Shown: positions 1 to 5,446, counted from the stretch's first letter. The stretch is 5,446 bases of DNA from Candidatus Vampirococcus lugosii (GCF_018420025.1 NZ_JAEDAM010000067.1:1-5446); one strand, 5' to 3'. A program made the numbers and translations. The notes: generated from the letters alone by a model not told the origin.

Positions 1-462
1 TCAAAACAAGATCCCTCGACTTCGCTCGAGATGACACAAGAAGAGAAATCTTTAGACATTTGATTTAGAGTTTACAAAGTAGATTCTAGTAATATAAAAG
101 ATGTTTATTTTCATCCAAATGATATTGATCAAAAAAAATTATCATTATTGGAAAGTAATATAAAAGAAGATAGAAAAGCTCTTGATTTACTTACTGAAAT
201 TATGCTTGATTTATGACTTACTCTTGATTTATCAATAGAATCCAAAACTATTGCTTGAAATACAGTTTATTTTGTAGCTTGAAATAGTTTAGTTGCTTGT
301 TTTGATGAGTTTATAGATTTTGCAATTGTTGATGAAATAGCAAAATATGAACCTTTGAAAGTAGTTTTTAGAGATTCAAGTTTTAAAAACGATTCTGATA
401 AAATAAATTTTGAAACAAGATTTAAAAAATTGAGTCCTGAAACTGTGATTAGAGTTATTTAG
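1..462 (+). CDS. mod: Type III restriction-modification DNA methyltransferase (Mod), C-terminal 153 codons; the 5' end lies outside the window; translation table 25
   Basis: Frame 1 is open from base 1 to TAG 460-462 when the four in-frame TGA codons (61, 214, 256, 280) are read as Gly. Product: SKQDPSTSLEMTQEEKSLDIGFRVYKVDSSNIKDVYFHPNDIDQKKLSLLESNIKEDRKALDLLTEIMLDLGLTLDLSIESKTIAGNTVYFVAGNSLVACFDEFIDFAIVDEIAKYEPLKVVFRDSSFKNDSDKINFETRFKKLSPETVIRVI. From memory this matches the conserved C-terminal tail of type III Mod-like adenine methylases (GF+V+K+D.SNI ... LG..L...I......G..VY.V..N.L+ACFD ... +VVFRDS.F..D..KIN..Q.FK.LSP.T.++VI). The catalytic motifs are upstream of the window, so the call rests on this tail plus the downstream res gene. 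Confidence 0.75.
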
Positions 463-466
463 TTAG

Positions 467-578
467 TTATAAATTATAAATTTAAAAAAATGTTATTTAA
501 TTTACCAAAAACTTGTTTAGTAGATAAAACTATTCCCAAAAGTAAATTTTTTACAAAAAATCTTATAAATTATAAATT
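467..578 (+). repeat. Exact 16-nt direct repeat TTATAAATTATAAATT bracketing the DUF4391 start codon
   Basis: Copies lie at 467-482 (the mod-DUF4391 gap) and 563-578 (inside the DUF4391 gene, encoding LINYKL). Each copy is itself a tandem duplication of the 7-mer TTATAAA. Read directly from the sequence. Confidence 0.45.
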
Positions 579-1113
579 AAAAGAAAAATTTACATTGCAA
601 ATATCAAAAATTATTTGGAAATATAAATTATCTTGTAATACTTTAAATATTTCTTTTACTGATAAAATAAAAGAAATACAAATATTTGAAATAAAATTAA
701 AACAAAAAATAATACCAAAAAATATTTTAAAAATAATTAATAAAAGTATTCCTTATACTATTTTATATCATTTTAAATTTGATGATAATGAATTTTTTGG
801 AATAAAATTAGAAGATAATAAAAATCAAATTTATTATTTTTCTAATTGGAATGAAAAAATAGATTTTGATTTTAATTGATTAAATCTTGAAATTATTTAT
901 CAAAATATTATAAAATCTTTTATCAAAAATATAAATACAAAAAATAATAATTTTGAAGAAATAATTGAAAAAGATAGAAAAATAAATATCTTAAAAAAAG
1001 AAATATTAAAATTAAAAAGTAATATAAAAAAAGAAAAACAATTTAATAAAAAAGTAGAACTTAATAAAAAATTACAAGAAAAAGAAAAATTGCTTGAATT
1101 CTTAAATAATTAA
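490..1113 (+). CDS. DUF4391-family protein (207 aa) with a Lys/Glu-rich coiled-coil-like C-terminus; function unknown; translation table 25
   Basis: ATG at 490 and TAA at 1111-1113, followed immediately by a second TAA. A single in-frame TGA at 877, read as Gly, joins the 129-aa standard-code ORF to 78 further codons with no TAA or TAG. Sequence: MLFNLPKTCLVDKTIPKSKFFTKN...EIQIFEIKLKQKIIPKNILKIINKSIPYTILYHFKFDDNEFFGIKL...YYFSNWNEKIDFDFNGLNLEIIYQNIIKSF...ILKKEILKLKSNIKKEKQFNKKVELNKKLQEKEKLLEFLNN. Three regions match my memory of Pfam DUF4391 (PF14335, accession from memory): the N-terminal M..LP..T.V.K.IPK.KF, the central E+.+FEI.L......+..I.+.IPY.I+, and the C-terminal KEKQFN+KVELN tail. The start is 27 nt after the mod stop. 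Confidence 0.8.
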
Positions 1114-1152
1114 TAAACAGAATATATTACAGATTTTTTTAATTATCTAATC

Positions 1153-1232
1153 TAAAATTAATTTCATTATATTAAAATTAATGTTAATATTTTTTTAAAG
1201 AATAAAATTATTTCTGTCCTTGAAATTAATTT
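1153..1232. repeat. Cluster of short AT repeats in the DUF4391-ATPase spacer: perfect palindrome AAATTAATTT x2 and direct repeat TAAAATTAAT x2
   Basis: Read directly from the sequence. AAATTAATTT (its own reverse complement) occurs at 1155-1164 and 1223-1232. TAAAATTAAT occurs at 1153-1162 and 1173-1182, exactly 20 bp apart. Confidence 0.5.
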
Positions 1233-1247
1233 ATATTTTTATATAAT
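1220..1247 (+). promoter_or_regulatory. Candidate sigma70-type promoter for the ATPase/nuclease gene
   Basis: TTGAAA (1220-1225), a 16-nt spacer, then TATAAT (1242-1247), ending 52 nt upstream of the ATG at 1300. The 10-bp palindrome AAATTAATTT (1223-1232) overlaps the -35 hexamer and the spacer. In DNA this AT-rich, hexamer matches arise by chance, so confidence is modest. Confidence 0.35.
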
Positions 1248-1299
1248 GAGTTTATTATTTACTGTATAGAAACTAAAAATTTAGGATTTAATCAAAAAA

Positions 1300-2868
1300 A
1301 TGATAAAGAAATTACCAATATGAATACAATCATTTGAAATTATGAGAACAGAAAATCGATTATATATAGATAAAACTTCTAATATAATAAATTTAATAAC
1401 AAAATGAAGTAAATATAATTTTTTATCAAGACCAAGAAGATTTGGTAAATCATTATTAGTAGATACAATAAAATATTTGTATGAAGGAAAAAAAGAATTA
1501 TTTGAATGACTATATGCTGAAAAAAATTGGAATTTTGAAAAAAAAAATCCTGTAATAAAGATTAGTTTTTGATCATGAATTTTGAATATACAAGAATTGG
1601 AAAATAAGTTTGATTCTATAATAAATAATAATTCAAGAAATAATAATATTGATATAAATAAACTAATAGAAAAAAATTATTCAGATAAATTTTTTGAATT
1701 AATAAGAAATATATATGAAAAAACTTGAAAAAAAGTAGTAGTATTAATAGATGAATATGATAAACCAATATTAGATAATATAACAAAAAAAGAACAAGCA
1801 AAACAAATAAGAGATATGTTAAAAAACTTTTATGGAATATTGAAAGATTCAGATCAATATTTGGAATTTGTATTTATTACAGGAGTAAGTAAATTTAGTA
1901 AAGTTAGTTTATTTAGTGGATTAAATAATCTTGAAGATATAACTTTATTAAAAGAAGTATGAGATATATGTTGATATACAGAACAAGAGATAACAGATAA
2001 TTTTCAAGATTATTTGGAATGAATAGATAGACAATATATGAAAAAATGGTATAATTGATTTAATTTTTTGTGAGAAGAAAAAGTATATAATCCTTTTGAT
2101 GTATTATTATTTTTGAAAAATAAAGAATATAAAAATTATTGGTTTGAGACAGCAACACCAACATTTTTGATGAAAATATTGAATGAATCAGAAAAGTTTT
2201 ATCATATACCAGATTTGCAAAATTTATCAGCAGGGGAGGAGCTGATAGGAAGTTTTGATATAGAAAAAATAAATATAGAAACATTACTTTTTCAAACAGG
2301 ATATTTAACTATTAAAGAGAAAATAGATAAATGATTTTGAGTTTGATACAAATTACAGATTCCAAATAAAGAAATAAAAATGAGTTTAAATAAATATATA
2401 TTATATGATTATTTATGAGCAATAAATAAAGAAAATTATTTTGTATTTGCTTGAAAAATATTTTTTGCATTAAAAGATGGGAAAGTAGAAAAATTTATAG
2501 AATTATTAAAAGAATTATTTTCATGAATAGCATATAATCATATACAATATATAGCAAGTTATGAATGATATTATGTAAGTGTGGTATATTCATTATTATA
2601 TAGTATATGATTGGATATAATACAAGAAGATATAACAAATAAATGAAGAATAGATTTAACAATAAAAATATGAGAATATATATTTGTAATAGAATTTAAA
2701 GTATTGAAACAATCAAATATAAAAGAAGAAAATCAAGCAATAAAACAAATAAAAGAAAGATGATATTCTCAAAAATATAAACAAAATTGAAAACAAATAA
2801 TAGAATTATGAATTGATTTTAATTTTCAAAAAAGAAATATTGAAAATTATATAAGTTATAATTTATAA
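1300..2868 (+). CDS. AAA-ATPase-like protein with a C-terminal PD-(D/E)XK nuclease domain (PF09820 + PF08011/PDDEXK_9 architecture), 522 aa; translation table 25
   Basis: ATG at 1300 and TAA at 2866-2868. I checked the frame codon by codon: 24 in-frame TGA, no TAA or TAG. The product begins [63 protein letters not shown]. This is the hallmark N-terminus of the family ([25 protein letters not shown] at 1426-1452). Other family motifs are a Walker B-like [11 protein letters not shown] (1735-1767), [34 protein letters not shown]...[11 protein letters not shown], and the nuclease core [20 protein letters not shown] (D at 2653-2655, E at 2692-2694, K at 2698-2700) followed by IKQIKERGYSQKY. Standard-code ORF 2113-2334 is an internal fragment of this gene in the same frame. 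Confidence 0.9.
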
Positions 2869-2905
2869 TTTATTTTATTATTTTAATCTAATGGAATTAG
2901 TTTTA

Positions 2906-2920
2906 AGAAATATTATTTCT
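2906..2920. repeat. 15-bp palindrome AGAAATA-T-TATTTCT downstream of the ATPase gene (operator-like or weak hairpin)
   Basis: Seven-bp inverted arms (2906-2912 and 2914-2920) flank a single central T. It lies 38 nt after the ATPase stop codon. A 5-bp stem-loop precedes it (CTAAT gga ATTAG, 2888-2900, then TTTT). Both are AT-rich and thermodynamically weak. Confidence 0.3.
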
Positions 2921-3059
2921 AGATTAATTTTTTATTTATGATTTACATTATATTTAAATATTGAAACCAAAGATATTGTTTGAAAGTAGATGAATTAATA
3001 AAATTTTAAATATTAAAAGATAAAAAATAAATCACAATTTACAACTAACAAATAAAATC

Positions 3060-5446
3060 ATGAAACTAAAATTCAAAGAACAACAATATCAAACAGATGC
3101 TAGCAATACAGTAGTTAATTGTTTTTTGTGACAAACAAAATGACTTGATAAATCTATATGAGATAGACAAATTATTGATTATTGAGTTGCTTGAAAACAA
3201 ACTTATGTAGAAGATTTATTTTCCAACAAAAAACTTGAAATTACTCCAGAACAAATTTTAAAAAATGTAAAAAATTTACAACAAGAAAATTGACTTATAG
3301 AATCAAAAACTCTTGATTGAATGAATTTTAGTATAGAGATGGAAACTTGAACTTGAAAAACTTATGTATATACCAAAACTATTTTTGAACTAAATAAACA
3401 ATATGGTTGGAGTAAATTTATTATTATGGTGCCATCTATTGCTATTAGAGAATGAGTAAACAAATCATTGCAAATTACACAAGAACATTTCAATGAAATA
3501 TATTGAAAGAAAATTAGATTTTTTATTTATGATAATAACAATAAATCAAATCTAGTAAATATCAAAAATTTCTCATCTAGTGCAAATATAGAAGTTATGA
3601 TTATGAATTATCAAGCTTTTGCTACCAATAGTAAAGAATCTAGGAAAATATATCAAAATCTTGATACTTTAAATTCTAGAAGACCTATTGATGTTATCAA
3701 AAGAACTCATCCTATTTTGATTATAGATGAACCACAAAGATTTTGAGATAAAGCAGAAAAAACATTAAAAGAATTTAATCCACTTTTTACCATTAGATAT
3801 TCAGCAACTCACAAAAAAGATTTTAATAAAATATATAGACTTGATGCAATAGATGCTTATAATCAAAAACTTGTAAAAAAAATAAATGTAAAATGAATTG
3901 AAGTAGTAGGAAGCACAGCAACTAATAGCTTTTTGTTTCTAGATAGAATAAATATTAGCACAAAAACTTATCCAACAGCTCATATCAAGATGGAAATGGA
4001 AGTCAAAAAAGCTTGATGAATAAAAAGAATTTTAAAAAAAATTAAAGAATGAGATAATCTTTATGAATTATCGTGACAACTTGAACAATACAAACATTTC
4101 GTAGTAAAAGAAATTAATTGATTTACAAATACTGTAAATTTTACAAATGGTGTGACTATATGAGTATGACAAGCTTATGGTAATATAGATGAAGGACATA
4201 TCAGAAGAATACAAATCAGAGAAACTATTAGGACTCATATAGAAAAAGAAAGATTAATGTATAGTAAATGAATAAAAGTATTATCTTTATTTTTTATAGA
4301 TGAAGTATCAAAATATAGAAATTATGATGAAAATGGTAATACTATTCCCTGAGAATATGAAAAAATTTTTGAAGAAGAATATCAAGATTTAATAAAAGAA
4401 ACTACTTTATTTGATGAAGAATATAAAAAATATGTAGAAAAATTTAAAGTATCGCAAATACATAATTGATATTTTTCCGTAGATAAAAAATGAAAATTGA
4501 TAGATTCAAAAGAAAAAAGATGAAGTGAATGAAGTGATGATGTATCAGCTTATGATTTAATAATGAAAGATAAAGAAAAATTATTGAGTTTTTGAGAACC
4601 AACAAGATTTATATTTTCTCATAGTGCTTTGAGAGAATGATGGGACAATCCAAATGTTTTTCAAATATGTACTTTGAGAATGAGTCAATCAAGTATTAGC
4701 AAAAGACAAGAAATATGAAGATGATTAAGAATTTGTGTAAATGCAAATTGAGAAAGAATGGATTATAATAATTTGGAAGATAATTTTTTTGATTACAATA
4801 CACTTACTGTAATAGCAAATGAATCTTATGAAAATTTTGCTCGTGAATTGCAAACTGAAATACTTGATTCTATTTCAAATAGACCTATTGCAATTACTGC
4901 TGAAACATTGAAATGAAGAGTTTTCAAAAATGAATCTTGAGAAAAATATATTTTTGATGATAAAAAATCAATGGATTTGATTATAGAGTTGAGACAAAAT
5001 TGATATTTGGATAGTGAATATAAAGTTACTAGTAAATTTATTACAGATATTGAAACAAATAATTTTCAAGCACCAAAAGAATTAAAATGATTTGAGAAAG
5101 ATTTGTTGAAATTTGTAAACGATGTTTATAGTATGGATAATTTCAAAGCTGTAGAAAATGCAAAAGATGAAAATGTTTTTGAAAAAATATTAAAACCAAA
5201 TGATAATTTTTACAAAAAAGAATTTCAAGAATTATGGAACAAAATAAATCATAAAACTACTTATAAAGTACATTTTAATACTTCTGAACTTATAGAAAAT
5301 AGTGTAAATGCTATTAATTGAAAACTTGAAGTAAATCAAATAAATGTAATTATATGAACTTGAAGTCAACAAGACAATATTGATCAAGAAAGTTTAAAAA
5401 CAAATACGAGTATTAAAAGACTTGATAAACAAACACAAACTACAAA
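3060..5446 (+). CDS. res: Type III restriction enzyme Res subunit (SF2 helicase/ATPase), N-terminal 795 codons; the 3' end and the expected C-terminal endonuclease domain lie outside the window; translation table 25
   Basis: ATG at 3060 is the first start after an in-frame TAA at 3021. I checked the frame codon by codon to 5444: 38 in-frame TGA, no TAA or TAG. The N-terminus [25 protein letters not shown] is typical of type III Res. Walker A is [22 protein letters not shown] (ETGTGKT at 3342-3362, both Gly encoded by TGA). Motif II is [11 protein letters not shown] (DEPQ at 3726-3737). Further matches are [36 protein letters not shown] (4611-4676) and motif VI KRQEIGRGLRICVN (QEIGRGLR at 4707-4730). 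Standard-code ORF 5103-5321 is an internal fragment in the same frame. Confidence 0.93.

Follow-up and report, generated by a model that had tools for sequence, protein, structure and literature searches.

The 5446-nucleotide contig of Candidatus Vampirococcus lugosii analysed here (GCF_018420025.1, NZ_JAEDAM010000067.1:1-5446; hereafter the window, meaning the whole stretch) carries, on one strand, the 3' end of a type III restriction-modification (R-M) methyltransferase gene (mod), a gene for a DUF4391 protein, a gene for an ATPase fused to a nuclease, and the first part of the restriction gene (res). This locus is probably a rearranged derivative of a widespread four-gene cassette, which encodes an SNF2-family helicase, DUF4391, Mod and Res in this order, and it would host an unrelated guest gene. 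The guest is the ATPase-nuclease, which, from sequence comparison, is most likely an independent member of the DUF1703 family and not a subunit of the restriction enzyme. DUF4391, in contrast, is a core gene of the conserved cassette and not an insertion into a two-gene operon. The preliminary description of this DNA had offered two possibilities, a four-component defence module or a type III variant hosting an independent cassette. Its interpretation was partly right, because the two extra genes differ in nature: the idea of a hosted cassette holds for the ATPase-nuclease and has to be given up for DUF4391.

The evidence for the cassette comes from gene neighbourhoods. We aligned 30 DUF4391 homologues and then scanned reference genomes and metagenomes, which yielded at least 522 and at least 426 confirmed relatives, respectively. 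The best 80 loci from each scan were scored by tblastn, giving 160 loci. The same-strand order SNF2-family helicase, DUF4391, Mod, Res was found in every one of them (160/160). In the loci for which 1 kb or more is available upstream of DUF4391, the helicase gene is always directly upstream of it (124/124); DUF4391 is followed by Mod in 106/106, and Mod by Res in 77/77. Median spacings are only 15 bp between SNF2 and DUF4391, 36 bp between DUF4391 and Mod, and 18 bp between Mod and Res; DUF4391 is usually coupled translationally to SNF2. The same arrangement appears in the precomputed Pfam annotation of further loci. Carriers include Saccharibacteria, Gracilibacteria, Woesearchaeota, Omnitrophota, Desulfobacterota, Bacteroidota, Clostridia, Paenibacillus, Brevibacillus and others, so that the range takes in candidate phyla radiation (CPR) bacteria, DPANN archaea, Firmicutes and Bacteroidota. 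Defence islands or mobile elements seem to be the setting of the cassette. In the searchable literature, we found no description of DUF4391 or of the SNF2-DUF4391-Mod-Res cassette.

The best PADLOC match of the cassette helicase is C3a139 (439 bits, full length), a model labelled 'HKD+Snf2'; its match to the DrmD models of DISARM is partial (131 bits). In the 1083-aa helicase of L174, the locus most closely related to the window, the part encoded at 1549-2280 (residues 1-245) has no Pfam domain and no match to PLD, and no HxK motif is visible in the protein. An 'HKD' nuclease in this protein was considered and rejected, as there is no Pfam PLD match and the first ~200 residues in L174 contain no histidine; for the same reasons, 'HKD' may be a mere label.

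The three R-M-related genes of the window belong with the cassette genes. Window Res shares 62-64% identity over ~790 aa with the cassette proteins, Mod ~70% in its conserved blocks, and DUF4391 ~55%. In addition, of the 120 best matches to Res, at least 12 come from contigs that carry DUF4391 loci. By these similarities, mod, the DUF4391 gene and res of the window are shown to be orthologues of the cassette genes.

A search with Res recovered four loci (L174, L175, L176 and L181) that are much closer to the window than the scored loci and that all use genetic code 25. In L174, Res is 85%, DUF4391 63% and Mod 59% identical to the window proteins, and the DNA of mod and res is 84-88% identical (84-85% in the conserved blocks of mod). 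Its gene order is SNF2-DUF4391-Mod-guest-Res, that is, the canonical core order with a Schlafen/AlbA_2 gene inserted before res. L175 has the same order with an AAA_13 ATPase as the guest, L176 has the four cassette genes without a guest among them, and in L181 Mod is directly before Res. The Vampirococcus order of Mod, DUF4391, guest and Res is the sole exception among the loci examined, and only here does mod precede DUF4391 and is SNF2 missing upstream.

The limits of the rearrangement could be placed precisely by alignment and by blastn of L001 against L174, L001 being a Logan assembly that covers the locus and reaches 5.4 kb further upstream. Homology to L174 extends past the stop codon of mod into ~20 nt of the post-mod spacer and then jumps to the start codon of DUF4391, which puts a breakpoint in the 27-bp spacer between mod and DUF4391 (463-489). 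It halts at the stop codon of DUF4391 and restarts 4 nt before the ATG of res. The breakpoints are thus clean and at gene boundaries. The spacer 5' of the ATPase gene (1114-1299; 186 bp, AT-rich, 12% guanine plus cytosine (GC)) has neither homology to L174 nor gene remnants, and the spacer 5' of res (2869-3059; 191 bp, AT-rich) has no L174 homology beyond its last 4 nt. No SNF2 gene was found in the 5.4 kb upstream of mod in L001, where tblastn with SNF2 proteins returned noise, and a search for remnants of SNF2 or Mod in both spacers and upstream of mod likewise gave only noise. The region upstream of mod in L001 encodes a bPH_2 membrane protein and an M48 peptidase, which are unrelated.

Guest genes at the junctions are a regular feature of the cassette. 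Gaps longer than 350 bp occur at 11/153 junctions between SNF2 and DUF4391 (7%), at 37/150 between DUF4391 and Mod (25%), and at 24/106 between Mod and Res (23%). The open reading frames (ORFs) in such gaps include RhuM, ORF6N, KilA-N, Bro-N, PDDEXK_3, a 23S-IVP four-helix bundle, YhcG/DUF1016 and unknowns. Just before res, the closest relatives have either Schlafen/AlbA_2 or the PADLOC candidate defence gene PDC-S46 at full length (786 bits), RhuM being a further guest of relatives at this junction, and the ATPase gene of the window occupies this very slot. Homologues of PDC-S46 were seen between mod and res in L175 (3537-5726) and directly after res in L176 (13041-15215), meaning that the same guest uses different slots.

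The gene in question (1300-2868, plus strand) encodes a protein of 522 aa. It matches AAA-ATPase_like (PF09820; 3.9e-64, 216.6 bits, residues 6-205) and PDDEXK_9 (PF08011; 2.7e-21, 76 bits, residues 421-515), with both scores exceeding the gathering cut-offs, and so has the DUF1703 architecture. Its motifs are intact, with the Walker A GKS at 49-51, the Walker B DE at 151-152, and D452 and E465-x-K467 of the PD-(D/E)XK nuclease. More than 8000 homologues exist. The nearest ones (56-58% identity) come from code-25 genomes, contain 19-24 TGA codons each, and adjoin an ABC transporter, CTP synthase or DDE transposase gene; one genome has two copies. On plasmids, the gene stands alone amid insertion sequence (IS) elements and toxin-antitoxin and partition genes, in up to 5-6 copies per replicon, some of them in tandem. 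For these statements, three metagenomic and three plasmid contexts were inspected in detail. A homologue was found in none of the fetched flanks of 164 canonical related cassettes (the 160 scored loci plus L174-L176 and L181). With stand-alone homologues and no recurrence in the cassette, the suggested four-component defence module is not supported.

As an example of the plasmid setting, the 58.7-kb Calditerrivibrio plasmid NC_014749.1 (L178) gave five tblastn matches to the window ATPase. We took the spans 11137-12675, 14982-16511, 22734-24029, 37428-38966 and 39095-40642 as the copies; they are annotated as 'ATP-binding protein' or 'AAA family ATPase', two of them form a tandem pair, and all five have IS200/IS605-TnpB and IS256 elements around them. 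The DUF1703 family (Knizewski et al. 2007, as cited in PMC6387759) usually has fewer than 4 copies per genome and at least 10 in about 10% of species (PMC6387759). A family of unknown function, it derives from horizontal gene transfer and is prone to expansion, one Cardinium genome having 25 paralogues (PMC6387759). In V. lugosii, the type III endonuclease gene is among 126 inferred horizontal acquisitions (PMC8080830), as are about eleven 'AAA ATPase' genes, labelled 'ATPase AAA' or 'AAA+ ATPase superfamily' (PMC8080830, Supplementary Data 1). The roughly eleven ATPase genes may reflect an expansion of DUF1703 in this 1.3-Mb genome.

The surroundings of the ATPase gene in the window differ from the tight packing of the core genes, with spacers of 186 and 191 bp on its two sides. 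A promoter-like TTGAAA-16-TATAAT lies upstream of it at 1220-1247. The site is only suggestive, because such sites are no more frequent in the window than in shuffled sequence (60 versus 57 expected by chance). Direct or inverted repeats around the gene, as would be left by a mobile element or a target-site duplication, were sought, and only AT-rich chance matches were obtained.

The visible part of mod (1-462, plus strand) comprises its last 153 codons (codons at 1-459, TAG stop at 460-462), and this C-terminus matches PADLOC MTase_III (2.6e-41, 140 bits) at model positions 482-618 of 621. The full-length Mod in L001 has 707 aa, scores 99.9 bits with PF01555 (N6_N4_Mtase), and contains IYIDPPYNTG with the DPPY motif and DFFSGSATT with the FSGSATT motif, in keeping with a beta-class N6/N4 DNA methyltransferase that has DPPY and SAM-binding motifs. 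The gene also carries an in-frame insertion of ~35 aa (~105 nt) at about 5365-5470 of L001, whose 3' end corresponds to window 1-31 and which is flanked by imperfect direct repeats of 29-30 nt, CAAGATCTCTCGGCAAGCTCAAGATGACA and CAAGATCCCTCGACTTCGCTCGAGATGACA. Its GC content is 42-47%, against ~23% in the flanks, and it has no counterpart in seven other aligned Mods, the closest relatives included, so it is lineage-specific. It may be a small in-frame mobile insert; its predicted fold is not significant (z -1.4).

res (3060-5446, plus strand) is represented by its first 795 codons and is open at the contig end. Its product matches PADLOC REase_III (1.8e-232, 772 bits, model positions 1-755 of 989) and PF04851 (5.9e-15), and has the helicase motifs GTGKT (97-101) and DEPQ (223-226) of a superfamily 2 (SF2) ResIII ATPase. 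The score of 316 bits with NF012027 is under the equivalog cut-off of 564, partly because res is cut off at the contig end. As the visible protein stops at residue 795, the endonuclease region would fall beyond the contig. PF19778 (RE_endonuc) is present in relatives that are 70-85% identical to the window's Res, among them the full-length, 1010-aa Res of L174.

Several smaller observations concern the surroundings of res. The gene calls of the Logan contigs include a 32-codon ORF at 2891-2989, MELVLRNIISRLIFYLGFTLYLNIETKDIVGK, in the res-proximal spacer; it is probably spurious, because the surrounding spacer lacks conservation in L174. In the corresponding spacer of L174, at ~9030-9150, an 11-nt unit similar to TACATGGTAAG is repeated several times in tandem, for which the window has no equivalent. 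The genes directly 3' of res encode an OLD-family ATPase/TOPRIM protein in L003-L005 and an ArdC-N/MPTase-PolyVal protein in L181 (3589-4419), the latter resembling anti-restriction proteins of conjugative elements.

The DUF4391 gene (490-1113, plus strand) encodes a protein of 207 aa that matches PF14335 (2.2e-36, 126 bits). Of the alignment columns with a conservation of 95% or more among 163 homologues, it keeps 28/28, and it is not decaying. Faster evolution of DUF4391 after the loss of SNF2 was considered and rejected: its 63% identity to the L174 protein, while Res is 85% identical, is ordinary for a fast-evolving gene (17th percentile of pairs with similar Res divergence). The AlphaFold 2 model has a predicted local distance difference test score of 88 and a predicted template modelling score of 0.79. 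It consists of a globular N-terminal alpha/beta domain followed by a C-terminal helical, coiled-coil hairpin with a conserved EKQFN motif, and it contains no recognisable catalytic motif. The model has no fold matches in PDB or BFVD, no sequence or structural relative of known function was found, and a PADLOC v2 search with DUF4391 and the ATPase-nuclease gave no family match at E <= 0.01. Because of the tight coupling to SNF2 and the lack of catalytic signatures, we infer, with less confidence than for the points above, that DUF4391 is a non-catalytic adaptor or regulator normally joining the SNF2 motor to Mod-Res. Since its conservation is complete here although no SNF2 gene is adjacent, either it contacts Mod or Res directly or an SNF2 protein is encoded elsewhere in the genome. 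A second, fused copy was seen in a gut metagenome (L006-L008, 14058-15757), where a 563-aa DUF4391+DUF4116 protein follows res directly in a cassette that also has a normal DUF4391 gene.

The basic layout of the window given in the preliminary description is borne out. ORF calling under code 25 recovers four same-strand ORFs, in agreement with the family matches, whose scores greatly exceed chance, and code 11 gives only short ORFs in the same region. mod and res are on the same strand, and from the mod stop to the res start there are 2597 bp with two genes in between, close to the 2.6 kb stated earlier. All four genes contain in-frame TGA codons (4 in the mod part, 1 in DUF4391, 24 in the ATPase gene and 38 in res), and 14 of the 24 sites in the ATPase align with glycine in standard-code homologues, as expected from the claim that all four read TGA as glycine. 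Their composition matches the 13-26% GC and the TGA usage of the host. No RNA genes were found in Rfam and tRNA scans of the window, and a scan for plus-strand terminators detected none.

The window is an entire contig ending inside res, with an ATPase and a Res that are 100% identical to V. lugosii proteins, and it was compared with L001 and L002, two Logan assemblies from two sequencing runs, which have the same gene order at 99.95% identity across every gene junction. L001 (from SRR13241709) parts from the window within res, at window position 4183; its last 51 bases (L001 9622-9672) are AT-rich, unrelated to the window, and create a stop codon in res. The window and L002 end no more than 30 nt apart, further along res. 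The divergence in L001 could be a strain variant with disrupted res, a branch of the assembly graph, or a repeat. No assembly of the same organism that extends downstream of res is on record.

Three other explanations of this locus have to be weighed against that of a rearranged cassette with a guest. The most consequential is that SNF2 was lost and that the DUF1703 ATPase-nuclease took over its role, which would make Mod, DUF4391, DUF1703 and Res one four-component system. The ATPase gene, with intact Walker A, Walker B and PD-(D/E)XK motifs, directly follows DUF4391 on the same strand, and DUF4391 has stayed fully conserved without a neighbouring SNF2. If the label 'HKD+Snf2' is taken at its word, one ATPase with a nuclease-like domain would simply have been exchanged for another. 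But the label may be no more than that, given the missing PLD match and the lack of an early histidine in the L174 helicase. The absence of the gene from all 164 canonical related cassettes also speaks against the exchange, as do the stand-alone, multi-copy habit of its nearest homologues and of the family generally, the 186 bp that separate it from DUF4391 (compared with a median of 15 bp between SNF2 and DUF4391), and the unrelated guests found at the same junction in relatives. We therefore regard the exchange as unlikely, and the version in which DUF4391 would bridge a different ATPase to Mod-Res as equally doubtful. If it were nevertheless true, it would be a natural swap of motors in a type III-like system and would provide the first functional context for DUF1703.

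Another possibility is decay, in which the system was disabled when it was rearranged and lost SNF2, and its genes are remnants becoming pseudogenes. The helicase gene that is present in 124/124 loci elsewhere is missing from its position here, L001 runs into a stop codon within res, and mod has acquired its 35-aa insertion. Nevertheless, code 25 leaves no interruption in the visible part of any of the four ORFs, DUF4391 retains 28/28 conserved columns and has diverged to an ordinary degree for the divergence of Res, and Mod and Res have intact catalytic motifs. Moreover, the genes are strongly adapted to the GC content and TGA usage of the host, which indicates that they have been maintained for a long time, so we give decay only a small probability. 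That the odd gene order stems from a chimeric contig, through faulty assembly or binning, is highly improbable. The contig is indeed short, it ends inside a gene, and three assemblies break in the same region; but the NCBI contig and the two Logan assemblies agree across every junction, all genes share the code and composition of the host, and the breakpoints are clean and fall at gene boundaries. Several points still weigh against a rearranged cassette with an unrelated guest. An ATPase partner is missing from its usual position while an ATPase-nuclease has been gained beside DUF4391, which could mean replacement; the absence of SNF2 is established within 5.4 kb upstream of mod only; the nuclease domain of Res and the downstream region lie past the contig end; the promoter-like site at 1220-1247 is no better than chance in AT-rich DNA; and the role proposed for DUF4391 is one that we infer for a protein without a relative of known function, in sequence or structure.

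For the rearranged cassette, the following mode of action can be proposed. By analogy with enzymes of the EcoP15I type, Mod would recognise an asymmetric site and methylate one strand. Res, which combines an SF2 ATPase with a nuclease at its C-terminus, would start to slide along DNA upon ATP use and would cut unmodified DNA where two complexes meet. DUF4391 would normally link the SNF2 motor to Mod-Res, and in V. lugosii it may touch Mod or Res itself or work with an SNF2 protein encoded elsewhere. The DUF1703 protein most likely acts alone, as a nucleoside triphosphate-dependent nuclease of the accessory genome, whether as a defence gene or as a selfish gene, and its gene probably gains from its location as do other guests in R-M operons.

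The significance of these results lies more in the cassette than in the window, which is itself a one-off rearrangement. They point to a large subfamily of type III R-M systems, apparently undescribed, that is strictly linked to an SNF2-family helicase and DUF4391. DUF4391 thereby gains a firm functional neighbourhood, and the question is raised of what a second translocase adds to a type III enzyme. The conservation of DUF4391 in V. lugosii hints that it may work directly with Mod or Res. The guests add type III examples to the pattern of R-M operons serving as landing pads for defence-like or selfish genes, and they call for caution in annotation, since a gene lodged in an R-M operon is not necessarily a subunit. 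The preliminary description had further argued that elaborated R-M loci are a plausible main defence of CPR bacteria, given their reported poverty in CRISPR-Cas. This argument is inapplicable to V. lugosii, because two CRISPR-Cas loci are reported in its published genome (PMC8080830).

Compared with classical type III R-M systems such as EcoP15I and EcoPI, the locus likewise has an N6_N4 Mod with a DPPY motif and a ResIII-type SF2 Res on the same strand. However, mod and res are 2597 bp apart here instead of adjacent, and this subfamily of Mod and Res always occurs with DUF4391 and, elsewhere, with the SNF2 helicase as well. With the SNF2-DUF4391-Mod-Res cassette, the window shares DUF4391, Mod (59-70% identity) and Res (62-85%), but it has neither SNF2 upstream of DUF4391 nor the order DUF4391-Mod-Res. 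The ATPase-nuclease has the domain architecture, the length of ~520 aa and the motifs of the DUF1703 family, and it is the only sampled member lodged in a type III R-M locus, the other six contexts being different. DISARM class 1 resembles the canonical cassette, in which an SNF2 helicase, an adenine methyltransferase and a second helicase-nuclease are combined. Yet DrmA, DrmB (DUF1998) and DrmC (PLD) are absent from the window, L001 and the canonical relatives, the cassette helicase has C3a139 and not DrmD as its best match, and the window itself is without SNF2.

A parallel to the guest is the gene of the anticodon nuclease PrrC, which lies inside the type Ic EcoprrI locus and is thus a guest in an R-M operon. 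In both cases, an autonomous gene for an NTPase with a nuclease domain lies between the genes for modification and restriction. The guest is unrelated in sequence to PrrC and RloC, and the host system is type III here instead of type I. The likeness lies in gene placement and in the pairing of NTPase and nuclease domains, and silencing or monitoring of the guest by the R-M enzyme is not part of it. In relatives of the window, the same slot is taken by the candidate defence gene PDC-S46.

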